IMG/VR virus record: IMGVR_UViG_2740892273_000003
From: a virus
Taxonomy: Duplodnaviria; Heunggongvirae; Uroviricota; Caudoviricetes
Length of the DNA stretch: 44,348 bases
Strand: one strand, 5' to 3'
This document shows positions 840-44,198 of this stretch, piece by piece; positions within the stretch are counted from its first letter, which is position 1; every line of letters begins with the position of its first letter. Under the pieces are notes generated by a model. It had not been told where the DNA came from. It saw nothing but the letters and a program-made list of their open reading frames with translations, and made no database searches. A program made the translations under genes and the position numbers.

Positions 840-1421
840 TTACCCTATAGGTGCTACTGGCCATTCAATATCCGGTGCAGTTGATGTATCAACACGGTTC
901 AGCAACACCCGATACTTTTTCCAAGCTTCCAGCAACAAGGTTTCTTTCTCCGTTGCGATCTCCAGATCCACAGCATCCTGAAGCGGCGCTATATGCTCAC
1001 TGGCTACCTGCATCAGGCTGTTTTTTGTTTCTTCCGCCTCCCGGATCCGGAACAGTTTTTCTGCTTCCGTATCCTTCACCCAGGCTGTGCCGTTCCACTT
1101 CTGAAACTCCCCTTCCGGCGACAACCAAGTAACATTTTCCGGTAACGGACCGAGTTCAGAAATAAATAACGCGTCGCCGGAAGCCACGTCATAAACCGTT
1201 TTACCCCGATGATCTTCAACGAGATGCCACGATGACTCATCACTGTTGAAAACAGCCACGAAACCAGCCGGAATATCTGGCGGTGCAATATCGGTACTGT
1301 TTGCAGGCAGACCTGTATGAGGCGGAATATATGCATCACCTTCACCAATAAATTCATTAGTTCCGGCCAGCAGGTTATAAATTTTTATGGTCCGTGCTTG
1401 TTCACTCATTCTGAATGCCAT
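840..1421 (-). CDS. tfa: Tail fiber assembly protein (lambda Tfa-like, 193 aa)
   Basis: ORF length and position immediately downstream of the side tail fiber gene; start overlaps stf stop. Confidence 0.8.
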
Positions 1422-10756: not shown

Positions 10757-13314
10757 CGTCCACCTCCGGAGAACAGGCCACCATCACGCATCTGTGTCTG
10801 AATTTCATCACGGGCACCCTTGCGGGCCATGTCATACACGGCCTTCATCATCTGTGGACCTGGCAGACCATTCGTACCGTCGTTCTGAATCACCACGTGA
10901 TTGTTCTGATTAAAATTAATGCCTTCAGCCCGCCGCATCTGCGCCGGACTTCCGGCACCGCCCACATAACCACCTTCCGCATAGCCGCGCATCAGCCGGT
11001 AGAGATTCCCCACGCCAATCCGGCTGGTTGCCTCCTTCGTGAAGACAAATTCACCACGGTGAACAATCCCCGCTGGCTCATATTTGCCGCCGGTTCCCGT
11101 AAATCCCCCGGTTGCAAAATGGAATTTCACCGCAGCGGCCTGAATGGCTGTACCACCTGACGCGGATGCGCCGCCACCAACAGCCCCGCCAATGGCGCTG
11201 CCGATACTCCCGACAATCCCCACCATTGCCTGCTTAAGCAGAATTTCTGTCATCATGGACAGCACGGAGCGGGTGAAGCTGCGCCAGTTCTGTTCACTGC
11301 CGGTCAGCATCGCCGCCATATTCTGTGCAATACCATCAAAGGTCTGCGTGGCTGCACTTTTAACCTGTGACATACTGTCCGTGGCGCTCTCTTCCCACTC
11401 ACTCCAGCCGGACTTCAGGCCTGCCATCCAGCTCCCGCGAAGCTGGTCTTCAGCCGCCCAGGTCTTTTTCTGCTCTGACATGACGTTATTCAGCGCCAGA
11501 GGATTATCGCCATACTGTTCCTTCAGGCGCTGTTCCGTGGCTTCCCGCGCTGCCTGCCGGTCAGTCAGCCCCCGGTTTTTCGCATCAATGGCTGCCCGTT
11601 TTGCCCGTTGCTGCTGTGCGAATTTATCCGCCTGCTGCGCCAGCGCATTCAGGTGCTCCTGATACGTAACCTTGTCACCAAGTGCAGCCAGCTGGCGTTT
11701 GTACTCCAGCGTCTCGTCTTTATGCGCCAGCAGGGATTTCTCCTGTGCGGACAGCTGGCGACGTTGTGCCGCCTCCTCCAGTACCGCGAACTGACTTTCT
11801 GCCTTCCACAAATCCCGGCGCTGCTGGCTGATTTTCTCATTCGCTCCGGCATGCTTCTCCAGCGTCCGGAGTTCTGCCTGAAGCGTCAGCAGGGCCGCAT
11901 GAGCACTGTCTTCCTGACGATCGCCCGCATACACCTTCACGCCGGACTGTTTCGGCTTTTTCAGCGTCGCTTCATAATCCTTTTTCGCCGCCGCCATCAG
12001 CGTGTTGTAATCTGCCTGCAGGATTTTTCCGTCTTTCAGTGCCTTGTTCAGTTCTTCCTGACGGGCGGTATATTTCTCCAGCGGCGTCTGCAGCCGTTCG
12101 TAAGCCTTCTGCGCCTCTTCGGTATATTTCAGCCGTGACGCTTCGGTATCGCTCTGCTGCTGCGCATTTTTGTCCTGTTGACGCTGTTGATCTACCCTCT
12201 TTTGGGCTGCATCCCGCTCCAGGCGTTTTTTTTCACGATCATCCCAGTAACGCGCCCGTGCTTCATCGTTAACGAAATAATCATCCTTGCGCAGATTCCA
12301 GATGTCGTCTGCTTTCTTAAACGCAGCCTCTGCCTTAATCAGCATCTCCTGCGCGGTATCAGGACGACCAATATCCAGCACCGCATCCCACATGGATTTG
12401 AATGCACGTGCAGTCCTGTCTGCCCAGGTCTCCAGCGTGCCCATGTTCTCTTTCAGGCGGCGGGTCTGGTCATCAAACCCTTTCGTTGCGGCCTCGTTCG
12501 CCGCCTGCAATGCCCCGGCTTCATCGCCGGAACGCTGCAACTGAGCAACATACGCAATCTGCTCCGCCGTCACGTTATGGAACTGGCGTGCCATCGCCGT
12601 CAGCCCCGACGTCGGGTCTGTGGTCAGCTTCCCGAAGGCTTCAGCGACCTTGTCCACCTCCACGCCGGATGCATAGGAGAAACGCGCCACACTCTGGCTG
12701 ATGGACGCAATCTGAGCCTCACCGCTTACCCCCGCCTTAACCAGTGCGCTGAGTGACTCGCTGGTCTGGTTAAACGTCAGCCCTGCCGCCTGCCCGGCTC
12801 TGGACAGGACCAGCATACGATCTGCCGTCAGTCCCGCCTGATTACCGGAAAGGACCAGCGTTTTGTTGAAATCGGACAGGGTTGAGTTGCCCTGATACCA
12901 GGCATACGCCAGCGCACCGGTCGCCACCGCCAGCGAGGTGGCCCCCACCATCGGCAGGGTGATCGCGCCGGCAAGCCCCCTGAACATGGGGATCATCCCG
13001 CCGAAGGAGTCCTTAACCTGACCACCCTGTTGCAGCAGGATCAGCCAGGGATTCTGCCCCCCTGCAAGCTGCGTGGCCACGTCGGTGAACTGTGCAGGCA
13101 GCATACGCATGGCGGCTTTATACTGCCCGACGGAAATCCCCGCTTTCTGTGCAGCCAGCGCCTGTCGGCTCAGCGACTGTTCAACGACTGCCGCTGTTTT
13201 TTTCGCATCACTTTCCGTACCGGAAAAATGACGCCTGACTCTGGCCATCTGCTCGTCAAATCTGGCCGCATCCAGACTCAAATCAACGACCAGATCGCCT
13301 ACCGGTTCAGCCAT
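10753..13314 (-). CDS. H: Tail tape measure protein H (853 aa)
   Basis: Length identical to lambda H; coiled-coil rich middle; Gly-rich C-terminus; follows G/GT. Confidence 0.85.
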   Translation of the reverse strand: MAEPVGDLVVDLSLDAARFDEQMARVRRHFSGTESDAKKTAAVVEQSLSRQALAAQKAGISVGQYKAAMRMLPAQFTDVATQLAGGQNPWLILLQQGGQVKDSFGGMIPMFRGLAGAITLPMVGATSLAVATGALAYAWYQGNSTLSDFNKTLVLSGNQAGLTADRMLVLSRAGQAAGLTFNQTSESLSALVKAGVSGEAQIASISQSVARFSYASGVEVDKVAEAFGKLTTDPTSGLTAMARQFHNVTAEQIAYVAQLQRSGDEAGALQAANEAATKGFDDQTRRLKENMGTLETWADRTARAFKSMWDAVLDIGRPDTAQEMLIKAEAAFKKADDIWNLRKDDYFVNDEARARYWDDREKKRLERDAAQKRVDQQRQQDKNAQQQSDTEASRLKYTEEAQKAYERLQTPLEKYTARQEELNKALKDGKILQADYNTLMAAAKKDYEATLKKPKQSGVKVYAGDRQEDSAHAALLTLQAELRTLEKHAGANEKISQQRRDLWKAESQFAVLEEAAQRRQLSAQEKSLLAHKDETLEYKRQLAALGDKVTYQEHLNALAQQADKFAQQQRAKRAAIDAKNRGLTDRQAAREATEQRLKEQYGDNPLALNNVMSEQKKTWAAEDQLRGSWMAGLKSGWSEWEESATDSMSQVKSAATQTFDGIAQNMAAMLTGSEQNWRSFTRSVLSMMTEILLKQAMVGIVGSIGSAIGGAVGGGASASGGTAIQAAAVKFHFATGGFTGTGGKYEPAGIVHRGEFVFTKEATSRIGVGNLYRLMRGYAEGGYVGGAGSPAQMRRAEGINFNQNNHVVIQNDGTNGLPGPQMMKAVYDMARKGARDEIQTQMRDGGLFSGGGR

Positions 13315-14145
13315 ACCGGACTCCTCCTGCGATCCCTTCTGATACTGTCATCAGCATTACGTCATCCTCCGTCATGTCCGCCACATCCGGGGAAGCGGGG
13401 ATAACTTCATTCCCGTCCGGGCCAAAGCGGACACCTCCGGCAAGCCCTGCCGCTTTCTGCATCAGCACATCATCTTCAGGCTCTTCGTCAGCCTCGCGCC
13501 GGTTCAGCAGACTGAAATCCAGCGGATGCATCTCCGGATCGCTGAAAAACAGGCTGAGCACGGTGTACGTCAGCCCGGAAAAGTGCATATCCAGCAGAAC
13601 ATCATGAAAATAATGGGTACTGTAAAAGCGGTGCCAGTCGGCATACTCCGTGGATGACATCCCGGCAAGCATGGCGCGCCAGTCGGGTCGCCCCATCTCA
13701 CGCGCCAGTTTCAGGGCAAAACTCAGCTCACCGTCGAACACTTTCCCGCAGAAACAGGCTCTGCAGGCCCGGCGTCCTCTGCCTGTTCAGGAGCATCATT
13801 CACCACAAACTCATACATACCGGACAGCCGGTACACCACGTTTTCAGCATGAGAAATTGCCTCTGTGGGCCAGGTGGTAAGCACTTCCTGCTCAATCTGT
13901 TTAACGGCTTCATTCATGGACGGCATCTGCGTCTTCTTCGGATGGTTATGCCACAGGGACATCGCAACCACAAAAGCGCCGGTTCTGATGGCGTCTTCCA
14001 CAGTAAACTTCCGGTTGCTGTCTGACTCCGCCTGTTCTGCCTGCCGTTTCATCAGGTCGAGATGCTCAATACGCTGCAGGGCTGACAGTTCAGAAAGCGT
14101 GACGGTCACACCGTTATGTTCAAATGATTCGGTTTTCAGGAACAT
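13307..14145 (-). CDS. GT: Tail assembly chaperone GT, produced by programmed -1 frameshift from G into T
   Basis: Slippery heptamer GGGAAAG (minus strand, ~13741-13747) near the G 3' end; the -1 frame continues as VFDGELSFALKLAREMG... (T ORF, 13307-13741). Confidence 0.75.
13723..14145 (-). CDS. G: Tail assembly chaperone G (140 aa)
   Basis: Length identical to lambda G; ends ...PVSAGKCSTVS over the slippery site. Confidence 0.8.
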   Translation of the reverse strand: MFLKTESFEHNGVTVTLSELSALQRIEHLDLMKRQAEQAESDSNRKFTVEDAIRTGAFVVAMSLWHNHPKKTQMPSMNEAVKQIEQEVLTTWPTEAISHAENVVYRLSGMYEFVVNDAPEQAEDAGPAEPVSAGKCSTVS

Positions 14146-28204: not shown

Positions 28205-28516
28205 ATGTTTAACGTGATAACCCACCCTGCAGCACTGGATGAACTGCTTGAACTACCAGATGATTTGCGAGGTCGCATGACCAGATTAATTGAGCGACTG
28301 GAGAAGGAAGGCAACAAACTGAAGATGCCCCATAGCCGTGTAATAGGTGGAGGGCTTTTTGAACTACGAGTAGGGGATAAAAACATCGCAAGAACGCTGT
28401 ACGCCTACGCGACTGGTAACGAAATTTATCTATTGCATGCATTTGTAAAAAAGACACAGAAAACACCGGTGAAGGCTATTGAAATCGCCAGAACTCGCCT
28501 GAAGGAGATGAACTGA
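28205..28516 (+). CDS. Type II toxin, RelE/HigB superfamily (N15 gp49-like, 103 aa)
   Basis: Small basic protein resembling gp49-like/HigB toxins; GGAGG RBS 7 nt upstream; encoded upstream of an HTH protein with ATGA start/stop overlap; opposite strand to flanking phage genes. Confidence 0.65.
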   Translation: MFNVITHPAALDELLELPDDLRGRMTRLIERLEKEGNKLKMPHSRVIGGGLFELRVGDKNIARTLYAYATGNEIYLLHAFVKKTQKTPVKAIEIARTRLKEMN

Positions 28517-28803
28517 TGAAAGCGAAAGGCATCCCGTTTAACGAAGTAAAAGAAAAACTTCTCAACACTCCAGAAGCCATCAAAGGATATGAAGAGGCCG
28601 ATAAAGAGCTGGAGATGGTCGAAATGTTATACGAAATGAGGGAAAGAGCAGGTTTAACGAAGTCAGCTCTGGCTGAACGAATGGGATTGCGCCCGTCAGC
28701 TATCAGCCGCCTGGAAAGCAATCCTTTAGGGGCAAGCATGAAAACTTTATCAAAATATGCCCAAGCATGCGGTGCAACGATTAATATTAATGCCGTCTAT
28801 TGA
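28516..28803 (+). CDS. HTH (XRE-family) antitoxin, HigA-like (95 aa)
   Basis: Helix-turn-helix segment LTKSALAERMGLRPSAISRLE; translationally coupled to the toxin gene. Confidence 0.65.
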   Translation: MKAKGIPFNEVKEKLLNTPEAIKGYEEADKELEMVEMLYEMRERAGLTKSALAERMGLRPSAISRLESNPLGASMKTLSKYAQACGATININAVY

Positions 28804-28846: not shown

Positions 28847-29065
28847 TCAATGATGCAAACACTCAACAGCAATAACTTGTTGGCAATTCTGAGCAATCTC
28901 CCGCGACATACTAACAAGTCGTGAAATCTCGCCAAGATGCAAGCTGGCTTCTGGAGAAGCCAGAGCAACGCTAACCAGATCCAAAACGGCGTCGATGTCT
29001 TTTAGGTTTGATCCGAGTTCTTCAAGAGTTGATACAGGTGCTTCAGTCATTGAATCTAATACCAT
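28847..29065 (-). CDS. Small protein (67-72 aa) downstream of a LexA box; candidate SOS-inducible antirepressor
   Basis: ORF with alternative ATGs at ~29065 and ~29050; a LexA-box-like sequence lies ~25 bp upstream. Confidence 0.45.
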   Translation of the reverse strand: MVLDSMTEAPVSTLEELGSNLKDIDAVLDLVSVALASPEASLHLGEISRLVSMSREIAQNCQQVIAVECLHH

Positions 29066-29087: not shown

Positions 29088-29107
29088 TACTGTATAAAAT
29101 TACAGGG
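29088..29107 (-). promoter_or_regulatory. LexA box (SOS operator) overlapping a candidate promoter
   Basis: TACTGTATAAAATTACAGGG fits CTGT-N8-ACAG with an AT-rich centre; on the minus strand it overlaps TTGAGT-17-TACAGT promoter-like hexamers. Confidence 0.6.
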
Positions 29108-29134
29108 TAAAACTCAAATTTTATAGCCAACTTT

Positions 29135-29289
29135 CAATGGATTAACTGGTTAAATATCTTTGTAGTCCGATACTTATGTTCCCTTCCTACGCCTCGCCCA
29201 ACCACTTTCAAAAGCCCATCACCACCATCAGAAAAGCTCTTTTCGCTCCGTTTTCGTATCATTTCAAAAAGCAATGCCTTTTTGTCCAT
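29135..29289 (-). CDS. Unannotated small ORF (about 50 aa) with a strong Shine-Dalgarno sequence
   Basis: ATG at ~29289 preceded by GGAGGG at 5-nt spacing; translation MDKKALLFEMIRKRSEKSFSDGGDGLLKVVGRGVGREHKYRTTKIFNQLIH; below the track's 60-aa cutoff. Confidence 0.3.
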
Positions 29290-32973: not shown

Positions 32974-33616
32974 TTAATAATGCAGTTCGATTTAAGCTCA
33001 GACATCGCGACTTAATTAAAAGCCAGCGTTCTTTATAATCTTGTCTCCAGCTATCAATAGATATATTCAGTAGAAAACTCAGATGCCTGTCCTGTTCTCT
33101 CTCATCAACTGCCTCAGCACACGTAAGTTCTGACTTAACCTGCTGTGCCGCGTAATAAATCAATTTTCTCATGGCTTTTTTCGTGGAGGCCTTCATTTTT
33201 TTAAACCCGCCACCCGAATGCGCAACCAGAAAATCAAGCCATAACCACTGACAAACAATCACATCATTGTTGTAGTCAGGCTTGCATCCGTAGCAATAAT
33301 AAAGCCAGGCTGATTCCTCGTTATTCAACTGACCAATAGCCCTGCGCCAGCTGGCGCTCTGAAAATCAATATCAGTGAGCAACATTGATGATTGTTTAAA
33401 TGTTTTGCCCTGGTGGAATCTAACCGGCTCAGCAGGAACAGACACTTCGTATGAGTTATCATCACCTACACTGATTGACCGGACTGGTTTATTGTTAAAG
33501 CGTCCTGATCTGCCTAGACGCATCTGCTCAAGCTGGACCTCTAGGATGCCACGCTGGCGATAATGAATATCAGCCAATGCCGTGGAGACGCAGCTGCGTA
33601 TATACTCAAGCTCCAC
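32906..33616 (-). CDS. Hypothetical protein (236 aa) translationally coupled to cro; possible late regulator, function not established
   Basis: ORF overlapping the cro 3' end; contains a CxxC pair (YYCYGC); no family recognised by eye. Confidence 0.45.
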   Translation of the reverse strand: MELEYIRSCVSTALADIHYRQRGILEVQLEQMRLGRSGRFNNKPVRSISVGDDNSYEVSVPAEPVRFHQGKTFKQSSMLLTDIDFQSASWRRAIGQLNNEESAWLYYCYGCKPDYNNDVIVCQWLWLDFLVAHSGGGFKKMKASTKKAMRKLIYYAAQQVKSELTCAEAVDEREQDRHLSFLLNISIDSWRQDYKERWLLIKSRCLSLNRTALLNAAEKRSEIIKRHRAGSAILPL

Positions 33617-33854
33617 GCTTACGGCTCTCCTTAATCGACTGCTTTACCCGCCGAGTTGTAAAGTCACTCTTCAGCTTGTAAGCAGTACGAACTTCAATAT
33701 CACTTTGCCGCAATGAAGGAATCTCTCCAGCGGTTAACCATTGGTAAACAGCACCGGGTGTTACACCTACCCCAGCCGCTGCTTTTTCTACACTGCCAAA
33801 GTGGCGAATAAGTTCTTCTGGTTTCATGCGGTTATTATAAGCAATAAATCGCAT
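33606..33854 (-). CDS. cro: Cro-like DNA-binding protein (82 aa)
   Basis: Small HTH protein (AAGVGVTPGAVYQWL) transcribed divergently from the repressor gene across an operator-containing 64-bp spacer. Confidence 0.7.
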   Translation of the reverse strand: MRFIAYNNRMKPEELIRHFGSVEKAAAGVGVTPGAVYQWLTAGEIPSLRQSDIEVRTAYKLKSDFTTRRVKQSIKESRKRGA

Positions 33855-33870
33855 TTAAAGCCAGCTATAA
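33855..33870. promoter_or_regulatory. Operator-like site TTAAAGCCAGCTATAA between cro and cB
   Basis: Imperfect copy of the adjacent 16-bp palindrome; located at the cro start. Confidence 0.5.
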
Positions 33871-33880
33871 TAAATAAATT

Positions 33881-33896
33881 TTATAGCCAGCTATAA
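33881..33896. promoter_or_regulatory. Operator-like palindrome TTATAGCCAGCTATAA between cro and cB
   Basis: Perfect 7-bp inverted arms TTATAGC/GCTATAA with a 2-bp centre, flanked by AT-rich promoter-like sequence. Confidence 0.55.
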
Positions 33897-33918
33897 GAAG
33901 ATCATTTATGATTAAGCT

Positions 33919-34515
33919 ATGAAAACACGAGGCGAACGACTGAAAGCACGCCGTTTAGAGATGAAGCTGACGTTGCGAGAAGTTGCTGAGGCTGTCGATA
34001 TCTCTATTGCAGGCGTCCAAAACTTAGAACGTGGCGACGTAATGCCGTCACTGGAGATAGGTATTGCCCTGGCTAAATGCTTACGCAAGCCAGTGCATTG
34101 GGTGCTGTATGGGACAGAATATGACCCTGATCGCATTCCTGTTATTGGCACAACTGAAAGTGGACCTGATGAAGAGTGGAAGCCAGGACAGGTTCCAAAT
34201 ACTGAGCGATTCCTGCCATTCATCAGCCAGCGCAATACTGTTTATGCGTTAACTATCAGCAATCTGGCGCAGGGAAACTATCAGCCTGGCGATTTTCTCC
34301 TGGTCGATTCTGCGCTGGAACTGGTCCCCGGCGAGGATGTTCTGGTTCGTGATACTGCAGGAAATATCACCATCCAGCGCCTGGCCCGTTTTGATGATGA
34401 AAATTACTATCTGGACGGAACAAATTCACAACGCGCTATCTTCAGGAAAAGCGATCTTGAATTTGTTCACCAAATAGTCGGAACGATCAAATCATTCATG
34501 GTTGAGGGTAGATGA
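33919..34515 (+). CDS. cB: Prophage repressor, cB/cI-type (HTH_XRE N-terminal domain plus LexA/S24-like C-terminal domain that appears to lack the catalytic Lys)
   Basis: N-terminal HTH LREVAEAVDISIAGVQNLERG; the C-terminal domain aligns by eye to the cI/LexA peptidase fold (PGDFLLVD) but has QRLAR where the catalytic Lys is expected. Confidence 0.75.
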   Translation: MKTRGERLKARRLEMKLTLREVAEAVDISIAGVQNLERGDVMPSLEIGIALAKCLRKPVHWVLYGTEYDPDRIPVIGTTESGPDEEWKPGQVPNTERFLPFISQRNTVYALTISNLAQGNYQPGDFLLVDSALELVPGEDVLVRDTAGNITIQRLARFDDENYYLDGTNSQRAIFRKSDLEFVHQIVGTIKSFMVEGR

Positions 34516-34616
34516 CTTAATACGGGGTTTATTGTTTGCTGTAAATCTGGTTTAATGCAGAGCATATGTTCTGTGGGTTGACTCAGGTTACAGCAGCAGA
34601 AAAAAGACGAAAAAAA

Positions 34617-34645
34617 ACCCGAGTCGGCAAACTCGGGTCCTTTTC
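34617..34645 (+). terminator. Intrinsic terminator between cB and repA
   Basis: A-tract, ACCCGAGT-cggcaa-ACTCGGGT, then CCTTTTC. Confidence 0.6.
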
Positions 34646-34760
34646 AGGAAGCAGCCACAGTAACGCGACGGATTCCGTCAATTCAAGATGCGTTTATTGT
34701 GGCTGCTCCTGCGGATTTTTTCAACCCGAAAAAACATAATTCGCATGGAATGGCTAAAAA

Positions 34761-37700
34761 ATGACATTAAACGATTTCTATGCGGATCGCTTTGGCAGCG
34801 ATCCGTTCTCGCTAATTGAAGCAGCACGGGATGAACTAACCGAGCTGGCACAGATGGCTGGTATCAACTGGTCTGCCTGTTCCGACAACATCCAACTCAA
34901 CCCTCGCGGGGGTGTTGAGCGTTACTCTTCATACAATAAAACATCCCCAGAAGCTCTCGAAAAGAGCCTCAAAGGACGCGTAGAAATTTACTCCCGGCTG
35001 GAACACAGCAAAGGGATTGATTACCCGTTCATTAACTTCGTCCATAAAGGCAGCGATGCTGGCTCATGGAGCGGTTTCTCCTTCCTGTTTTCTGAATATC
35101 GCCGTGAGCAACAACGGAATAATGCGACCGTGGTCGCACAACCGGAAGAAGAACGGGCAAGAATAGAACGTCAGGCCGAAGCACGTCGTCGCCGTGAAGA
35201 ACAAAAACGAATTAATGACCTGAAAAACAACCAAATGGACCATGAACGTTTGCTGGGATGGCTGGCATTCCACAGTGCTTGGGAACATGCTCCTGCAGAA
35301 GACGGCTCATGGCCATATGCGATTAAAAAAGGTATTCGTGACGTTTTTAATTCGTGTGATGTGCGTCGCGTGACCAGTCACGACAGCGCAAAATGGAGCA
35401 GGGGGCCAACCACGTATATGGCTATCCCTCTGGCTCACCTGGACGGTCGTTACGATGGTCGTATTGTTGGTTGGCAGCGAATCGACAAACAAGGTGGAAA
35501 ATACCAGACCAGCGCCGTAACCAGCGGCGATTTCGTCGGTGCCTGCTTTGTTATCGGTGAGCTGAAAGGGGCGCAAAACATCGCTGTTACAGAAGGTTTT
35601 GCTACTGGTGCATCCATCTGGCTTGCCACGAAAAAAGATAAACGCTTTGACGCTGTGGTTGTCGCTGTATCCGCTAACAACATGGTTCATGTTGTGGAAC
35701 AACTGGTAAACATGTACCCGGCGGCAAAAATCACCTGCGCACTGGATAATGACCGGAAATCAGCTACAGAAGGAAAAGGGAATACCGGCCTGCGGACTGG
35801 CTATGAAATCTTATCGAAATTCAACGATGTCCGCTGCGTCTATCCAACTTTTGAAGACGATCCGCAAATGGAGTGCAGTGACTTCAACGACCTGCACAAA
35901 CTACGTGGACTTCGTGAAACAGCACGTCAACTGTTTGCAACTGCAAACCGCCTGAAAACTGGCACTGATTTGCTATCTCTGACGCTCAACCGCCTGAAGA
36001 CAATTAAGCGGGATAACCGTCGTACTTTTGCCAAAGAGCTGCTGAGAGCAGTGGATATTGGCATGCTAACCTGTCCGGTTCCTAACAGTCCGTCAGACTT
36101 ATTTAACATGTTCTGCATCGTCCTGCGTGAAATTGGGCTGGAAAATATCTATCGCGCTACGGTAAAAGACCACATTGCCCGTCGCCTGAATAAAAAGTGC
36201 CGTATTGCCCAGGCTCCGCGCTCATTCAGCGAACGAATAACTGATCCCAATAAACGTCCTCAACATATCACCTATAAGCGTTTTGAAACTTCGGTAATGA
36301 CCGATGACGTCCTGAAGTATGTGCAATCACTACAGGGGATAGTCATCGTTCGTGCTGGTATGGGTTCCGGCAAATCTACTGGATTGTTACGACCTTTAAT
36401 GCATAGCTCAGAACGTGGTATCTCTGTTGCTCACCGTGTTTCCCTTATTGGTGGCCTGTGGGAAATGATGACAGAAGGAAAAGGTGTAAAAGCCGATATC
36501 CTGCACTATCAGGACCCTGGCTATCAGGAAATGGCTCCATACGCCAGTAAACTGACCATCTGCATAAACTCGATTGTTAAAAACTGCTGGCAACCATTGA
36601 TGCGCCAGCACGACTATTTTGGCTTTGACGAGGCCACGCAAGGGCTACGTGCCGTTCTTTCCGGTCGGGCTATGGAAAACCCGGTGGCTGTATTCAATAC
36701 GTTAATTGACGCGCTGGCCAGAACGGAACAACACCCAATAATGGTGGATGCTGATGCGAACGATCTGCTGGTTGACCTGGCTGAACTGGCTATGAAACGC
36801 CGTGAAGAACTAGGTTTACCGGCATGGCTGCAGATCCACGTAATTGAATTACCTGTTGATGTTCGCAACCGCGAAACAGGTGAGCCAATCCGGGTTTTTT
36901 ATACAGAAAAAGATCGCATTATGACCGAGGTGGTGAAAGCTGTATCGAATGGCGAAAAAATCATGTTGGCCACCGACAGCTCCACCTTTGCAGAAGATGT
37001 GACCGCCACCCTGAGAATGCATTTTCCTGGTAAGAAATTTCTGTGTGTAAACCAGAAAAACAAACCAGAGCCAGAAGTTGAAGCATTTACCAATCAACCG
37101 AAAAAGATGGTCAAAAAATACGACGGCCTGATTTATAGCCCGTCTATTTCATCCGGTGTGTCGATTGAGCAAAAACATTTTGACCGTCATTTCGGCATGT
37201 TCTGTGGTGAAGTTGTACCCAGCGACGCAGTGCAAATGCTACGCCGCGACCGTACAGCAAAAGAATTTATTATCGGCTTTGATAAAGCTCGCGCAAAACG
37301 TGAAACTGACCCGCAAAAAATAGAACGAGCATTCGCCCAGGCATTGCTTGCTACCGCAGGCATGAACGGTGAACTGACGGATGTCGTTTTCGATGGCGAC
37401 CGTATATCAATGGGGGTGGCCAATACCGACTTTACCAGGATGAAAATTAAAGCAGCCGCAATTGAAGCGTCTGCGCGTAACGACTACGCCAGCAACATGA
37501 TCTGCATCATGCACAGCGACGGTTATAAGGTATCGCCGCTGGCCACCGATTATGCTGCGAATGATATCGGTAAAGATCTGCGTAAAGAAGCGCGGGATAT
37601 TGTGTGGGAACAGACACTGGATCTGCATCTCAATACAGAAACTCCACAAGAATCAGAGCGTGAAGAACTGCTAAAAAAACGCGCGCTGACGCTTGAAGAA

Positions 37701-38756
37701 CAAGCAAAACTTGTCCGCTGGGATATTGAGAACGAACTGAAACTACCGGTTGAAGAAGGCACGCTGAAATTCTATTTCGATGGTGCTCGAGACAAAGTTC
37801 GCCGCTATGAAACAATGCTTTTAGATGAGGTAACAGCTCGTCGTTACGACCGGGAAGAAGCAGCCATCAATTTTACCTACGCATACCGTCAGGCGGGACA
37901 GTGGCAATATTTTGTAGTGACCGCGATGACTCGCGAGCAGGCTGATGATGTCTTTAAAACTAAATTCCCTGGAATAATCGACTACAAGGTAAAAGCTACT
38001 CCTACTGTTGAAGTCGGGGCGCGCGGTTTCTATGCGCTTAAATCAGCAACTCTCCGGCAGTACTTTATCGACTGCGGTATCAACCCTGAGACTATGACCG
38101 GCGAGGCGACTCAGGAGCGTCTCAAATTCGCTCGAGATAACCTCATGACAGCCGAACGCCGTGACCTGTTGAATAACGTTCTGCACATTGGTGGTTTTAT
38201 GACGCCAAAAGGGAAGCCTAAAGTGCCGGAAGCGTTGTTTAAAAACATTTGCGACTCTCTTGGCCTTAAAACAGGTAAACGTCGCGGCAGAGACGGCGAT
38301 AAGCGTCCAACCTTGCGTTTTGTTGAGCCTGAATCAGCGGCATTTATGCTGGATATTCTTGTTCAGCGTCAGAAAGATGGCCTAACCCTAAAAACGCGTA
38401 AAGCCGAGAAGACAGCCATCGAAATGGATCGCGATTTGGATCTCAATATATATATGGATGATAAAACGCGATCCACAAACGAGCAGGTTCAAAACGCCCC
38501 TCATTCAGTAATTTCTGAGGCTTTGGCCGTATTGCCGGTGGCTGTTCCTGAGTCCTGGGCGATGAGTGCGCTTTCCGGTGAGGAGCTGGCCACTATGTCA
38601 TCATGGTCATCAGCCAGCATAGCTATGACGTTTGCATCTCTGTATCTCACAGAGTTCATGGATCACTTGTCCAGCAATGAATTGCGGCGGTTACGAGAAT
38701 ACATTACCGGGAATAGCTCATGCAGCTACGAAGAGCAGGGCGCTTTCTATGGGTAA
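34761..38756 (+). CDS. repA: Replication protein RepA, multidomain primase-helicase (1331 aa, N15 RepA-like)
   Basis: Toprim-like primase motifs (NIAVTEGFATGASI; CALDNDRK), Walker A (GMGSGKST) and Walker B (YFGFDEAT) in the central region; size close to the ~1.3 kaa N15 RepA as recalled. Confidence 0.8.
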   Translation: MTLNDFYADRFGSDPFSLIEAARDELTELAQMAGINWSACSDNIQLNPRGGVERYSSYNKTSPEALEKSLKGRVEIYSRLEHSKGIDYPFINFVHKGSDAGSWSGFSFLFSEYRREQQRNNATVVAQPEEERARIERQAEARRRREEQKRINDLKNNQMDHERLLGWLAFHSAWEHAPAEDGSWPYAIKKGIRDVFNSCDVRRVTSHDSAKWSRGPTTYMAIPLAHLDGRYDGRIVGWQRIDKQGGKYQTSAVTSGDFVGACFVIGELKGAQNIAVTEGFATGASIWLATKKDKRFDAVVVAVSANNMVHVVEQLVNMYPAAKITCALDNDRKSATEGKGNTGLRTGYEILSKFNDVRCVYPTFEDDPQMECSDFNDLHKLRGLRETARQLFATANRLKTGTDLLSLTLNRLKTIKRDNRRTFAKELLRAVDIGMLTCPVPNSPSDLFNMFCIVLREIGLENIYRATVKDHIARRLNKKCRIAQAPRSFSERITDPNKRPQHITYKRFETSVMTDDVLKYVQSLQGIVIVRAGMGSGKSTGLLRPLMHSSERGISVAHRVSLIGGLWEMMTEGKGVKADILHYQDPGYQEMAPYASKLTICINSIVKNCWQPLMRQHDYFGFDEATQGLRAVLSGRAMENPVAVFNTLIDALARTEQHPIMVDADANDLLVDLAELAMKRREELGLPAWLQIHVIELPVDVRNRETGEPIRVFYTEKDRIMTEVVKAVSNGEKIMLATDSSTFAEDVTATLRMHFPGKKFLCVNQKNKPEPEVEAFTNQPKKMVKKYDGLIYSPSISSGVSIEQKHFDRHFGMFCGEVVPSDAVQMLRRDRTAKEFIIGFDKARAKRETDPQKIERAFAQALLATAGMNGELTDVVFDGDRISMGVANTDFTRMKIKAAAIEASARNDYASNMICIMHSDGYKVSPLATDYAANDIGKDLRKEARDIVWEQTLDLHLNTETPQESEREELLKKRALTLEEQAKLVRWDIENELKLPVEEGTLKFYFDGARDKVRRYETMLLDEVTARRYDREEAAINFTYAYRQAGQWQYFVVTAMTREQADDVFKTKFPGIIDYKVKATPTVEVGARGFYALKSATLRQYFIDCGINPETMTGEATQERLKFARDNLMTAERRDLLNNVLHIGGFMTPKGKPKVPEALFKNICDSLGLKTGKRRGRDGDKRPTLRFVEPESAAFMLDILVQRQKDGLTLKTRKAEKTAIEMDRDLDLNIYMDDKTRSTNEQVQNAPHSVISEALAVLPVAVPESWAMSALSGEELATMSSWSSASIAMTFASLYLTEFMDHLSSNELRRLREYITGNSSCSYEEQGAFYG
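35123..35138. repeat. sopC-like centromere palindrome copy 5 (TGCGACCGTGGTCGCA), inside repA
   Basis: Same palindrome embedded in the repA coding sequence (encodes NATVVAQ). Confidence 0.6.
38424..38476. other. Candidate replication origin inside the repA 3' region
   Basis: Imperfect inverted repeats GGATCGCGATTT / AAACGCGATCC containing GATC sites, flanking an ATATATATAT tract. Confidence 0.35.
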
Positions 38757-39273: not shown

Positions 39274-39669
39274 ATGGCTGTTCAATCATACAAATACGAA
39301 TCCCCTTTGGATAAGGGATACATTCGTATCAAGTTAAGTCGTTCTCAACATAAGGCTATTTTTAAGGTAAGGAAAATTCGCATATTGGATGCGTATGCGT
39401 ATTACTACAACGGTGAAAATGTTGTTGTTGAACACTTTCTTGCACGATGGTTTGTAGCTCTGATTTTTGTCCCTCTCCTGTTAATTGGTACTTTTGTGGA
39501 TGGTTTTCCTAGTACATGGCGGGAGATAAAGAAAGGCCTATTCCCGCGTAAGTACGGCAGATTTTCGCAAGATAGCTGGCGAGTTATACCTGGTAAACAT
39601 TCTGTGGATGAGCAGCCGATTGTTGATTACTGGTTGAAGCGTATGGCTGATGCTAAAAAAGTTGATTGA
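39274..39669 (+). CDS. Hypothetical membrane protein (about 131 aa), AT-rich
   Basis: One central TM segment WFVALIFVPLLLIGTFV; GC content visibly lower than flanking genes. Confidence 0.45.
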   Translation: MAVQSYKYESPLDKGYIRIKLSRSQHKAIFKVRKIRILDAYAYYYNGENVVVEHFLARWFVALIFVPLLLIGTFVDGFPSTWREIKKGLFPRKYGRFSQDSWRVIPGKHSVDEQPIVDYWLKRMADAKKVD

Positions 39670-39758
39670 ATAGTGATGACTGTTCAAGTTAAACCGTTCT
39701 CGGCATATTTTATTTAATGGAATAACATATTATTAATCAAATAGGTTAAGTTAATATT

Positions 39759-40571
39759 ATGCGTAACAAAAAAACAACAGCTTTATTACTCTCTATCTTG
39801 TTATTATCTGGATGCACTTATCAATATGATAATAAGGCATCAACGGACGTTGAGTATAAATTCGAAAAAGAAAAAAGAGTACCTATCAACTCTGTTGGTG
39901 ATTTTAGCAGCAAAATACTCACAGGTAAGGAATTTAATAGAATTATTGCATCAAAGATAGATGATGGTTCATGGCGTGGATATGTCGTTCACTCATTAAC
40001 ATACGCGCCATACAACAACGTTTTAACATCTCAAGGTTTGTCTATCCCTAGAAGTATCACATACTCAGGAACATATCTTAACCGTGATTTTGTTGAGAAT
40101 AGCGGTAGTGATAGCGTGATAACATCTCGAGATATGTCTGGATGGTATGGTTTTCATGTCGATTCCTCTGAAATAACAAAGCATGGAAGCTATGTTGGTG
40201 CTAATGCTTTTGGAATATCTGCTGATGTAGAAGTGTTAAATACTTTAGGTGCCGAAATTATCTTTGGTAGTACACAAATAAATGAAGGGAACCCTGAAAC
40301 AATATGGGCAGATATTGATATAAAAGGACAAATACCAAAAGATGTTAATGTAAAAGACCTTAGAATTGAATATTTAGCAAAGATAAATGGGTTAAGCAGT
40401 AATCATATTGATATAACATCACCTACTATTTTTAACCCGTCAGATATGAGCCATAAAACTCAGGTTTTTATGGGTGAGTTATTAGCCGCGCGCCTAATAA
40501 ATATTAAAACGGGAGAAATTTATCCAGTACAGCTAGAGTGGGTGTTCCGTTCGCGTGAGGCTTTCTTATAA
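39759..40571 (+). CDS. Lipoprotein (270 aa), AT-rich moron-like gene
   Basis: Signal peptide with lipobox LLLSGC; markedly AT-rich coding sequence; followed by a perfect hairpin GAACAAT-aac-ATTGTTC. Confidence 0.55.
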   Translation: MRNKKTTALLLSILLLSGCTYQYDNKASTDVEYKFEKEKRVPINSVGDFSSKILTGKEFNRIIASKIDDGSWRGYVVHSLTYAPYNNVLTSQGLSIPRSITYSGTYLNRDFVENSGSDSVITSRDMSGWYGFHVDSSEITKHGSYVGANAFGISADVEVLNTLGAEIIFGSTQINEGNPETIWADIDIKGQIPKDVNVKDLRIEYLAKINGLSSNHIDITSPTIFNPSDMSHKTQVFMGELLAARLINIKTGEIYPVQLEWVFRSREAFL

Positions 40572-40699: not shown

Positions 40700-40786
40700 A
40701 GTCACCTCGCTGCGGTAAATCCCGCAGTCGGGACTTCGCAATCCTGGCAAAACGAAGCGCACAACACGCGCCAGCGTGTTTTTTTG
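40700..40786 (+). ncRNA. Candidate small regulatory RNA (P1 c4 / N15 CA-like) preceding icd-ant
   Basis: Promoter-like TTGACG (~40673) with a weak -10; hairpin CTGCGG-taaatc-CCGCAG; intrinsic terminator ACACGC-gcca-GCGTGT then TTTTTTT at ~40764-40786; lies directly upstream of an icd-like gene. Confidence 0.4.
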
Positions 40787-40951
40787 TGTGTATAGACCTG
40801 CGCATATCCGAATTATGGTGGCTCAGGTGGGGCTGACTTCGGTCGGGCCGGTTTCTTCGTTTACCGGTATTGCGAACCCCGCCTGGGCTACCACCAATAA
40901 AGAGATTCGCAACTCTGGTGGTAGCACGACCAATAAAACGGAGTGCATACC

Positions 40952-41116
40952 ATGTTCAAATTCAAATTTGCGGCAGTCGTTCGCACAGACAAAAAGTCCC
41001 ACATTCATCATCTTTCCACTATCGCGTCATCTGAACGGGAAGCTCGTCGCCAGTTCGCCAGCCGGTTTGTCCTGGTATTGTCTGCCCGTATTCCGGTGCG
41101 CGAGGTGGCTGCATGA
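40952..41116 (+). CDS. icd: Icd-like cell division inhibitor (54 aa)
   Basis: MFKFKFAAVVRTDKK...EREARRQFASRFVLVLSARIPVREV fits the pattern recalled for P1-type Icd-like proteins; GGAG RBS. Confidence 0.55.
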   Translation: MFKFKFAAVVRTDKKSHIHHLSTIASSEREARRQFASRFVLVLSARIPVREVAA

Positions 41117-41346
41117 ATCAGGTAAAAATGAACACTGTTGGCCTGCTGGAATCGTTGGATGAACGTCTGGCTCAGGTCTATGCGCTCGTATCATCAGCCC
41201 ATCGGACAGTCTCCAGTTGTGAGGCGTCGATTTACCTCTCAGAGGCTGGAAAACTTCTGCAGATTGCGTGTGAGTTAACGCATGAAGCACAGGGATATTC
41301 TGCGTCTCTCTCGTCGCACTTGCTGCGCGATAAGGAGGCTGAATGA
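41113..41346 (+). CDS. Hypothetical protein (77 aa) in the icd-ant operon
   Basis: ATGA overlaps with both the upstream and downstream genes. Confidence 0.5.
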   Translation: MNQVKMNTVGLLESLDERLAQVYALVSSAHRTVSSCEASIYLSEAGKLLQIACELTHEAQGYSASLSSHLLRDKEAE

Positions 41347-42125
41347 GCGCGTTAGCAGTCTTTTCCTTTCAGGAAGAGCATCAGGTTCGTGTAGTGATGA
41401 TTAACGGTGAGCCGTGGTTTGTGGCTAAGGATGTATGTGATGCTTTAAGACTCGTTAATTCCCGGAAGGCGCTAATGTCTCTGGATGAGGATGAAAAGGG
41501 TGTAACTTTAAGTTACACCCCTGGCGGAGAGCAAAAGCTAAATATTATTTCAGAGTCAGGTCTATACACCCTGATCCTCCGCTGCCGTGACGCGGTGAAG
41601 CAAGGCACAACAGCTTGGCGGTTTCGCAAATGGGTAACGAACGAAGTCTTGCCCTCTATTCGCAAAAATGGAGAGTACGTTTACATCGAGCCTGAGCCAA
41701 TGCGAGCAGCGGAGCCGTTGAACTGGAGGCAGAAAGAGTATCTGCGAGGGCTGATTAACGATATAGCACAAAGTTTTCAGTACCGAAATGCCTGGATTAG
41801 CGGTGTATGGTTAGCTTTGCGTCGGGCGTGTCGTAATCCATCCCCGAACCCCATAACGGTTGATGATTTGCCAGCAATTACGGCAGAACTGCGCCGGATT
41901 TTGACGGCTGCTGAGTCGGCATTGGGGAACATGCGCACGTATGAACGAGAGTTGTTGCGTGATGTTGTTCGTGGGGGTAGGCGGAGTATGTCGTGTGGTG
42001 ATTTACCCATCACCGATATTAACTCTGATCTGGAAAAGGCGTTACCCGCGCATTTTGAACTGGCAGTTCAAAAACTTGAGCAGTTATCCGCGCAGCTAAA
42101 GCCAGCAGAAATCACCAATAAATAG
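41343..42125 (+). CDS. ant: Antirepressor with Bro-N domain (260 aa)
   Basis: N-terminal FSFQEEHQVRVVMINGEPWFVAKDVCDALRL...SESGLYTLILR...KWVTNEVLPSIRKNG matches the Bro-N domain pattern. Confidence 0.7.
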   Translation: MSALAVFSFQEEHQVRVVMINGEPWFVAKDVCDALRLVNSRKALMSLDEDEKGVTLSYTPGGEQKLNIISESGLYTLILRCRDAVKQGTTAWRFRKWVTNEVLPSIRKNGEYVYIEPEPMRAAEPLNWRQKEYLRGLINDIAQSFQYRNAWISGVWLALRRACRNPSPNPITVDDLPAITAELRRILTAAESALGNMRTYERELLRDVVRGGRRSMSCGDLPITDINSDLEKALPAHFELAVQKLEQLSAQLKPAEITNK

Positions 42126-42296: not shown

Positions 42297-44198
42297 TTAA
42301 CCGAAATATGTCAGCCATGCTAACTGCATTGCTGACATGGGGCTGTTTGCACTGCCGGACCACGCATAATTCTGGCCATTATAATGAAACTCAACAACGT
42401 ATGAGCCATCACCAATATTTCTCACCGGCTTAAATACCGGCTTAGATACAGGCGAAGAAGGTGCAGGCGGTTGCTGTTCTTCTACGCTATCTTCCTCTTC
42501 CTCTTCCTCTTCCTCTATCTCAATTTCGTCGTCATCCAGATCGTCATCCTCTGATAATTCATCCGCCAGTTCAGGTATTGCTTCCAGTTCTTCTTCGTCA
42601 GGCATAACGATTTCTGGAGTATCTATTTTCAGTTGCCATTGTCCGTTTTCGCCAACAAATTGCCCCAGAGCATCAGCAGCAAATTCCAGGTATCGACTAA
42701 TCATTGTTGGGCTAAATTTGAACGCTCTTAGAGTGCTGTTCGTGATTTTTATAGAGGGGTCCTGCTCTACCAGCTGCTTAACTGTGTTATGCAGACGAAC
42801 CCCGGCATCTCCTCTGGCGAATCCAGGCATTTCGTCATCAAGCTGCTGCAATGCTTCCAGCCTGGTATTTTCGTTTCCAGTATTTGGCCTCCATGTCTTT
42901 GAGAAGTTGGCCAGCTTGAATTGCTTATAGTGTAATTGAGTGTTTTCATCGTCATGGCCTAAAATTTCCATAAAGAAAACATCTTCATCTACGTTTTTCC
43001 AACGAGGATCTACGCGGAAAAACATTTCATACGCAATACGGGCATAAATAGCACGACTATCTTTATAAACACGGCGGTCATCTTTGAAAAATGATTTAAC
43101 CCACGGGTTAAAAGCCTTTGCTAATATGGCATTAATACGTCCGTTTTCAGAGCGTGTGTCGTTATCTCCATAACCTTTAACGACATCATCAAAATCAGAT
43201 GCTGCTGGGCATGAGCGAAGTACATTTATTAAATAAACAAATGTTTTTGCTTCGCATAATGTATATATTTTTCTGGTTATATCATCAGAAGTTCTTTTTT
43301 TAGCTTGGCCTAAAAAATCAACGGTATACTTACCAGAAACAGTAAATGTACCTTGATACATAATCTCAATCATTCGTCTTCCTGACAATGCAGCAAGTGC
43401 AAATGCCAAAGGAGCCATACCTGAACGAGTGTTTAGATTATTTAATGTAGCAGGGCTATTTATAATATCGTAAATAGCTTGCATATATTTAGGGTAATCA
43501 ATGACCACCACGTTACGTTTCTTATTGTGCAGAACGTCCGCCCATCGTTGCTGGATAGATGCACGTTCGGCAGGGCTTAGTTGAAGATGATAGAGAATCT
43601 CATGGTTAACTTTTAGCTGATTCAACTCCTCAAGTAAGGCAGATCCTTGCTGTAGTAATTTATATAAATAATCGCGCTTATCTTTCCAGTTATCGCTGGT
43701 TAAATCAGAAATGGCGAATTGCCACTCTTTATATTTATTTGATAATTTCAATAACTTATTATGACTTTTGTTATCGCCAATTCTGATATTAGATAAATCT
43801 TCTGATAGAGGGAGAATTAATTTTAATTTTGCCTGTAAAGCTGACATTCTCTGGCGAATATCGGCAGCAGGTAGAGAAAGCCATGACAATAGCTCCTCAT
43901 TATATAAAGGATACTTTTCAGATAGGCGATGTATATTTTTTTCAAAGCTATGATGAAGTTTATCATCAAACCGTTTTCTGGCCCTGCTCATATAGGCATT
44001 GAATGTGTTGGCTGTAATTCTTTTTTCTAATCCTTTCCCCCTAAACTTTCGCTTGTCATTAAATAATGCATTTTTAAATTTTAATGCAACAGCCTTTATT
44101 TTTTTTGTTTTCTCCCCTTGAGGACGGTCAGAGTTATCTATTGACTCAACATCGCTAACAAGTGAGTTTATTAATTCACCGATTTTTACTTTGCTCAT
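42297..44198 (-). CDS. telN: Protelomerase (telomere resolvase), TelN-like (633 aa)
   Basis: N-terminus MSKVKIGELIN..., internal blocks such as RITANTFNAYMSRARKRFDD and WRPN..ENTRL, and a C-terminal acidic tract match the N15 TelN protein as recalled; length is close to the 631-aa N15 protein. Confidence 0.8.
   Translation of the reverse strand: MSKVKIGELINSLVSDVESIDNSDRPQGEKTKKIKAVALKFKNALFNDKRKFRGKGLEKRITANTFNAYMSRARKRFDDKLHHSFEKNIHRLSEKYPLYNEELLSWLSLPAADIRQRMSALQAKLKLILPLSEDLSNIRIGDNKSHNKLLKLSNKYKEWQFAISDLTSDNWKDKRDYLYKLLQQGSALLEELNQLKVNHEILYHLQLSPAERASIQQRWADVLHNKKRNVVVIDYPKYMQAIYDIINSPATLNNLNTRSGMAPLAFALAALSGRRMIEIMYQGTFTVSGKYTVDFLGQAKKRTSDDITRKIYTLCEAKTFVYLINVLRSCPAASDFDDVVKGYGDNDTRSENGRINAILAKAFNPWVKSFFKDDRRVYKDSRAIYARIAYEMFFRVDPRWKNVDEDVFFMEILGHDDENTQLHYKQFKLANFSKTWRPNTGNENTRLEALQQLDDEMPGFARGDAGVRLHNTVKQLVEQDPSIKITNSTLRAFKFSPTMISRYLEFAADALGQFVGENGQWQLKIDTPEIVMPDEEELEAIPELADELSEDDDLDDDEIEIEEEEEEEEDSVEEQQPPAPSSPVSKPVFKPVRNIGDGSYVVEFHYNGQNYAWSGSANSPMSAMQLAWLTYFG

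Follow-up and report, generated by a model that had tools for sequence, protein, structure and literature searches.

The CB repressor of an N15-like telomere phage carries an S24-like domain without its catalytic residues, with SOS induction predicted to pass through a LexA-controlled antirepressor

In the CB repressors of the phages phiKO2 and N15, the RecA cleavage site and the essential serine and lysine residues were "not detected" (Hammerl 2016, PMC4997575). Under ciprofloxacin, the HALO-tagged N15 repressor was described as "non-proteolytic"; in the same study N15 "is known to be subject to antirepression", and the N15-like repressor type accounts for 210 of the 271 repressors of linear-plasmid phages (Silpe 2023, PMC10432266). 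The induction of N15 is started by the LexA-controlled antirepressor AntC, according to the passages of Hammerl 2015 (PMC4488713) and Lemire 2011 (PMC3121763) that cite Mardanov & Ravin 2007. The absence of the dyad and of the cleavage site from CB, the lack of cleavage of the N15 repressor and the AntC-driven SOS induction are thus already known for N15/phiKO2.

The corresponding repressor gene was analysed in a stretch of 44,348 nucleotides from a virus of the Caudoviricetes (IMG/VR record IMGVR_UViG_2740892273_000003), called here the window. The protelomerase gene telN at 42297-44198 confirms the window as an N15-like telomere phage, i.e. a linear plasmid-prophage. The cB gene (33919..34515, + strand) is an ORF of 198 aa with an ATG at 33919 and a stop codon at 34513-34515. 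Its product is 100% identical to the "cI" protein of Escherichia phage PhiR46_1 and 77-78% identical to the CB proteins of N15 and phiKO2 with a coverage of 100%, and the full-length protein matches phrog_4, "transcriptional repressor", in PHROGs with an E value of 2.9e-25. By homology to N15 gp38/CB, the ORF is identified as the CB (cI-type) repressor of primary immunity in an N15-like telomere prophage of E. coli. The DNA around cB is 99.7% identical to PhiR46_1 and about 77% identical to N15, and the cro-cB-repA stretch (33700-34800) is found at an identity of at least 95% in 29 plasmid records (PLSDB), almost all of them from Escherichia.

The cB start codon aligns with the codon for Met5 in the N15 protein as annotated. 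The window lacks one nucleotide there relative to N15 (33906-33921), which puts the upstream ATG annotated in N15, the one that gives the MIKG extension, out of frame and lets its frame run into a TGA; the CB start must therefore be the ATG at 33919. No obvious Shine-Dalgarno sequence precedes this ATG, and the -10 element of the cB promoter annotated in N15 abuts the start codon. By analogy with lambda cI transcribed from PRM, the cB mRNA may be leaderless. An antisense ORF of 107 aa (33912-34235, - strand) lies over cB and a similar ORF, labelled "unknown", is found opposite cB in the old N15 immB record; it is probably not a gene.

The gene order cro-cB-repA of the immB locus is the same as in N15. 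The cro homologue (33606..33854, - strand; N15 gene 39 at the same position) and Q are divergent from cB, and repA (34761..38756, + strand; N15 gene 37), which encodes a primase/replication protein of 1331 aa, is located downstream. In N15, repA is under OL control. With the N15 operator coordinates of record U45242, a pattern search and an alignment to N15 OR gave three predicted 16-bp CB operators in the OR region (33832..33896). OR3 (33881-33896, TTATAGCCAGCTATAA) has the same sequence as N15 OR3, OR2 (33855-33870) is one position off the OR3 sequence and OR1 (33832-33847) was placed by the alignment to the N15 OR region. The pattern search yielded 5 matches, compared with 0.24 expected. 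Two putative operators of the OL region 5' of repA (34529..34567), OL2 at 34529-34544 and OL1 at 34552-34567, were assigned solely by homology, through alignment to N15 OL. The central bases of OR1, OR2, OL1 and OL2 differ from those of N15, so that the immunity specificity of the window phage may differ from that of N15. A match with three mismatches to the CB operator consensus, TTATAGCCAACTTTCA, at 29121-29136, just 5' of the LexA box of antC described below, is not conserved in N15 in the alignment and probably arose by chance.

The cB protein consists of an N-terminal HTH_3 DNA-binding domain (aa 8-61; 33940..34101, + strand; Pfam E 3.4e-11) and a C-terminal LexA/S24-like beta domain (aa 72-190; 34132..34488, + strand) that is catalytically degenerate. 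Peptidase_S24 (PF00717) matches aa 99-171 with 21.3 bits (E 2.2e-4, Pfam), slightly lower than the gathering score of 23.3 bits, and a precomputed PF00717 match exists for most CB homologues of 75-79% identity. Comparison by hhalign of a profile built from 24 CB family members with a profile of LexA, lambda cI and UmuD gave a probability of 89.9% and an E value of 1.7e-6. The AlphaFold2 model of the protein (mean pLDDT 87) presents five helices at the N-terminal end and, after them, an all-beta domain, and the top ranks of a Foldseek search of this model against the PDB are the lambda repressor, the lambda-186 hybrid repressor, 186 CI and LexA. In sequence searches of the PDB, with the single sequence or with the family profile, the HTH domain dominates and UmuD, lambda cI and LexA reach E values of 0.02-0.8 only. 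The similarity of the CB C-terminal domain to S24 domains is well over chance, and the agreement of Pfam, of the profile comparison and of Foldseek upholds the original prediction, made from the sequence alone, that an S24-like C-terminal fold is kept.

The catalytic positions were then read in a MAFFT alignment of lambda cI, E. coli LexA, UmuD, the cB protein, N15 CB and remoter repressors of telomere phages, the columns of which were numbered by script. The scissile bond, A84-G85 in LexA, A111-G112 in lambda cI and C24-G25 in UmuD, corresponds to S81-G82 in the cB protein (34159..34164, + strand) and to T85-G86 in N15 CB; the glycine is retained here and the alanine is replaced by serine. 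The nucleophile, S119 in LexA, S149 in lambda cI and S60 in UmuD, corresponds to A117 (34267..34269, + strand) and to I121 in N15 CB. The general-base lysine, K156 in LexA, K192 in lambda cI and K97 in UmuD, corresponds to Q153 (34375..34377, + strand) and to Q157 in N15 CB. The register of all three sites is the same by hhalign, independently of the MAFFT alignment, and in an L-INS-i alignment of 90 sequences the Ser column moves by one residue, to L116. Neither register places a serine at the nucleophile column (A117 by MAFFT and hhalign, L116 by L-INS-i), Q153 and no lysine is found at the general-base column in any of these alignments, and the linker contains S81-G82 and no Ala-Gly or Cys-Gly bond by MAFFT and hhalign.

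Both strings on which the original prediction was based occur in the protein: aa 123-130 read PGDFLLVD and aa 153-157 read QRLAR. Its statements that the position of the catalytic lysine is QRLAR and that the Ser motif is altered both stand, Q153 being aligned with LexA K156 in all alignments and A117 (or L116) with LexA S119. In the HMM alignment neither a Ser/Lys dyad nor an Ala-Gly site is in register, these positions being Ala/Gln and Ser-Gly (with Leu for Ala in the L-INS-i alignment). A serine present nearby, S113, pairs by hhalign with the non-catalytic S116 of LexA; it varies in the family and is a glycine in N15. The glycine of the scissile site is invariant in the CB family, members of the dyad-less clade have Ser or Thr just before it, and the strand of the former cleavage site, PVIGTT-x-S/T-GP, is strongly conserved. 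Considering the loss of the Ser nucleophile (Ala117), of the Lys base (Gln153) and of the Ala of the Ala-Gly bond (Ser81), the C-terminal domain of CB is, on these alignments, a pseudo-peptidase descended from the LexA/lambda-cI S24 autopeptidase domain.

A probable antC gene, encoding a small antirepressor of 72 aa, was located at 28847..29065 (- strand) by homology, LexA box and PHROG match. Its product shares 57% identity (E 9e-27) with an N15 ORF that has no annotation (NC_001901 39604-39828), and it matches phrog_6301 (E 3.6e-36) and phrog_10889, "anti-repressor" (E 1.4e-6), both of which are also matched by the N15 counterpart. A perfect LexA (SOS) box, CTGTAATTTTATACAG, lies at 29090..29105 (- strand), some 25 nt 5' of the antC start. 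A LexA box, CTGTGTTTATATACAG, also stands before the N15 counterpart. In the alignment of the window with N15 the box is conserved together with its flanks, and the same box is present in PhiR46_1. By eye, a TACAGT -10-like hexamer overlaps the LexA box, 17 nt downstream of TTGAGT, with 8 of the 12 positions of this promoter matching; an automatic promoter/terminator scan around antC called nothing, and no sigma-70 promoter before antC. Taken together, the ORF 28847-29065 is a probable antC, coding for a predicted antirepressor under LexA control. On the homology, the LexA box and the PHROG match, the N15 ORF behind the LexA box is probably antC as well.

N15 gp47 was discarded as the antC counterpart: it has no similarity to the LexA-box ORF and corresponds to a separate, shortened ORF of the window (29134-29289). 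A second LexA-box match, CTGTCATCATGGACAG at 11247-11262, was attributed to chance; it is situated in the late structural-gene region, as judged from where PhiR46_1 has its equivalent match, and the TA-rich core is absent. Two LexA-box matches were reached in 10 of 100 shuffles. Genes for a RelE/ParE-type toxin (103 aa) and an HTH antitoxin (95 aa), the counterparts of N15 genes 49 and 48, adjoin antC at 28205-28803 (+ strand).

The window also contains the immA operon (40943..42125, + strand), defined by its ORFs and by matches to phrog_1743, phrog_6301 and phrog_130. It comprises an icd-like gene (40943-41116), a gene for an AntC-family small antirepressor of 77 aa that corresponds to N15 gp31 (41113-41346; phrog_6301, E 1.5e-36) and antB (41343-42125), which encodes a Bro-N/Ant-type protein of 260 aa matching phrog_130, "anti-repressor Ant", all on the + strand. 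Directly upstream of the icd-like gene are an isrK-like RNA (40709-40784, + strand; Rfam RF01394, 52.8 bits) and, after it, a C4-type antisense RNA, the cA of N15 immA (40811..40898, + strand; Rfam RF01695, 82.3 bits for a gathering score of 45). AntC and the product of the middle immA gene share the core DA-L...SPEASL..E..RL..SRE in a multiple alignment, and a direct BLASTP comparison of the two was not significant. On the basis of the shared PHROG profiles and of the multiple alignment, they look like paralogous small antirepressors, the former controlled by a LexA box and the latter by a C4 antisense RNA.

The comparison with PhiR46_1 bears on how these modules are assembled. Its CB is identical to that of the window and its AntC (13260-13475) is only 76% identical to the product of 28847-29065. 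By annotated ORF lengths, PhiR46_1 has ORFs of 54, 77 and 54 aa at the immA position (2150-2705), compared with a full antB of 260 aa in the window. The regulatory modules therefore appear mosaic between these near-identical phages. Upstream of the immA region, an ORF of 270 aa (39759-40571, + strand) has a lipoprotein-like signal peptide (…LLLSGC…), and PhiR46_1 has a 95-aa "Spackle" exclusion protein annotated at roughly this position; this ORF is a possible moron or superinfection-exclusion gene. In another part of the window, Rfam IS009 (RF02111, 218 bits) is found at 880-1078 (- strand), within a tail-fibre-assembly gene (840-1421, - strand).

The account we consider very probable as a whole combines a dead-S24 CB repressor, an SOS signal routed via LexA-controlled antC and a second route through immA. 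The HTH domain of CB would bind the 16-bp operators, OR1-3 between cB and cro and OL1-2 before repA, and CB bound there would silence the lytic genes and prevent run-away replication. The dead C-terminal domain would probably serve dimerisation and cooperative operator binding, by analogy with lambda cI and 186 CI. As the catalytic residues are absent, DNA damage would not be able to inactivate CB through RecA*-stimulated self-cleavage. The SOS signal would instead go through the host LexA, whose cleavage would de-repress antC, and AntC would bind CB and remove it from the DNA, as shown for N15 and expected by analogy for the window phage, in which AntC would contact CB directly. The second route would be the immA operon (icd, AntC paralogue and antB), restrained by the C4-type antisense RNA. 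The further claim of the original prediction, no RecA autocleavage and induction by antirepressors instead, is supported in this way and agrees with what is published for N15 CB (78% identity); the cB protein differs from N15 CB at 22% of the positions, including Ser81 for Thr and Ala117 for Ile.

An extension of this account, which we regard as rather unlikely, is that the dead S24 domain is the receptor for both paralogous antirepressors, AntC (LexA) and the product of the middle immA gene (C4 RNA). In this extension the docking surface may be the PVIGTT-x-S/T-GP strand together with the pseudo-active-site cleft. If true, the substrate groove of a peptidase would have been re-used as a protein-protein switch integrating two induction signals.

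The presence of two antirepressor systems raises the possibility that the main inducer is the immA operon, i.e. the AntC paralogue and the Bro-N protein AntB freed from the C4 RNA, with AntC being minor or redundant. The immA operon and its C4 RNA are complete in the window and the middle gene of the operon belongs to the AntC family. Nevertheless, the LexA box before antC is perfectly conserved in N15, PhiR46_1 and the window, and the DNA-damage induction of N15 is attributed to antC in the cited passages of PMC4488713 and PMC3121763, so we hold a leading role of immA to be improbable; it would in any case complement the main account, CB being inactivated by antirepression either way.

Cleavage of CB in trans, at the region of the former cleavage site, by a UmuD-like S24 protein, an ImmA-type metalloprotease or a host protease is less probable still. 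Intermolecular cleavage is known for UmuD, and N15 has a UmuD-like gene (gp26) behind a LexA box. The published N15 assay was apparently performed with the repressor alone (PMC10432266). However, a tblastn search found no UmuD-like or other S24 gene in the window that could cleave CB in trans, and no ImmA-like gene was seen in its annotated parts. A protease is also unnecessary if the induction of N15 needs antC, as these same passages of PMC4488713 and PMC3121763 report.

The loss of the dyad was further placed among the relatives of CB. The C-terminal domain was searched against 1.84 billion cluster representatives, which gave about 86 usable matches. Ser and Lys together with A-G, G-G or L-G are found in 59 of these, and in about 20 at least one dyad residue is missing, most of these having Thr-Gly or Ser-Gly at the scissile site. 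In the family alignments, the dyad-less proteins show no conserved Ser or Lys near the dyad positions. In the MAFFT alignment, Ala-Gly, Ser and Lys are all kept in P0054 (43% identity to the cB protein; motifs QAGP, GDSM and VKRL), in Vibrio phage Valp1 and in Aeromonas phage ARM81ld, and the cI proteins of PY54 and P840 stand in between: they retain the Lys but have Ala in place of Ser, and Thr-Gly at the scissile site. By these comparisons the CB clade is one among several degenerate branches in an otherwise catalytic repressor family. The CB family as a whole forms a graded series, from the full dyad through loss of Ser with Lys kept (PY54) to loss of both, which is useful for studying the shift from self-cleaving to antirepressor-controlled repressors. 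The best representative match, with an E value of 8e-31, was set aside as an artefact: P0064 is a giant plakin-repeat protein of 5594 aa, at least 12 repeats of which contribute 8-10 bits each to the summed score; P0070, P0102 and P0125 show the same repeat-sum artefact.

Three dyad-less relatives, P0058, P0047 and P0044, have one AntC-like small ORF each, the one of P0058 being weak (28% identity, E 0.001). Two of the three have a perfect LexA box before this ORF, and in P0044 the AntC homologue has no obvious LexA box. P0054, which retains the dyad, shows no AntC homologue and no LexA box within its left flank of 10 kb. The comparative support from these sequences for dyad loss alongside AntC and a LexA box is modest but consistent. 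In PY54, the stretch 39277-39864 contains a perfect LexA box, CTGTATACATATACAG, just 5' of a dinI-like gene (39315), which is followed by antA (39601); this suggests that the SOS induction of PY54 also passes via a LexA-controlled antirepressor, of the AntA family.

Least probable of all is that CB still cleaves itself through non-canonical residues (Ser113 or Ser81 as the nucleophile, Arg154 or another residue as the base) and is induced directly by RecA*: the S24 fold, the scissile-bond Gly and the strongly conserved strand around it would be compatible with this, but Ser113, itself unconserved in the family, occupies the column of the non-catalytic LexA Ser116, no alternative Ser or Lys is conserved near the dyad positions in the dyad-less proteins, and the N15 orthologue was assayed and remained uncleaved under SOS (PMC10432266).

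Induction of a non-cleaving CB by antirepressors is thus the reading retained here. The original prediction is right on this reading, yet a rediscovery of published N15 biology, and the identical "cI" of PhiR46_1 has a GenBank record already. The use of the analysis lies mainly in annotation. The cB protein, N15 gp38 (NC_001901 gene 38) and the clusters P0029 and P0060 carry the database labels "LexA family transcriptional regulator" or "S24 family peptidase", and such labels wrongly imply self-cleavage for CB-type proteins without the dyad. The antC gene has no annotation in N15 and is called "hypothetical" or "Gp47" in relatives.

Compared with known systems, the locus is closest to CB/AntC of N15 and CB of phiKO2, with which it shares the HTH plus S24-like architecture, the cro-cB-repA locus with 16-bp operators and the Gln at the Lys position. 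The syntenic pair of LexA box and small ORF, the presumed antC, and the same immA operon are also found in N15. The differences from N15 are Thr85 and Ile121 there for Ser81 and Ala117 here, none of them catalytic, and an AntC candidate that is only 57% identical.

The active S24 autopeptidases lambda cI, LexA and UmuD are more distant, with an identity of about 20%; since Ser is replaced by Ala, Lys by Gln and Ala-Gly by Ser-Gly, self-cleavage of CB is not expected. CB would work like the CI/Tum pair of phage 186 without being a member of that system: 186 CI is a structural match only and is absent from the PDB sequence searches, and AntC has no detectable sequence relation to Tum, its PHROG matches being phrog_6301 and phrog_10889 and no Tum family. 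The Gifsy repressors of Salmonella, which are controlled by the antirepressors GfoA and GftA, are short and, unlike CB, have no C-terminal S24-like domain.

The cI proteins of VP882 and ARM81ld, with their Qtip/smORF antirepressors, belong to the same repressor family and adjoin repA in telomere phages, as CB does, the ARM81ld protein being 24% identical to the cB protein. In contrast to CB, they keep Ala-Gly, Ser and Lys and are autoproteolytic (PMC10432266), and their antirepressors, unlike AntC, are triggered by quorum sensing or by other inputs independent of SOS.
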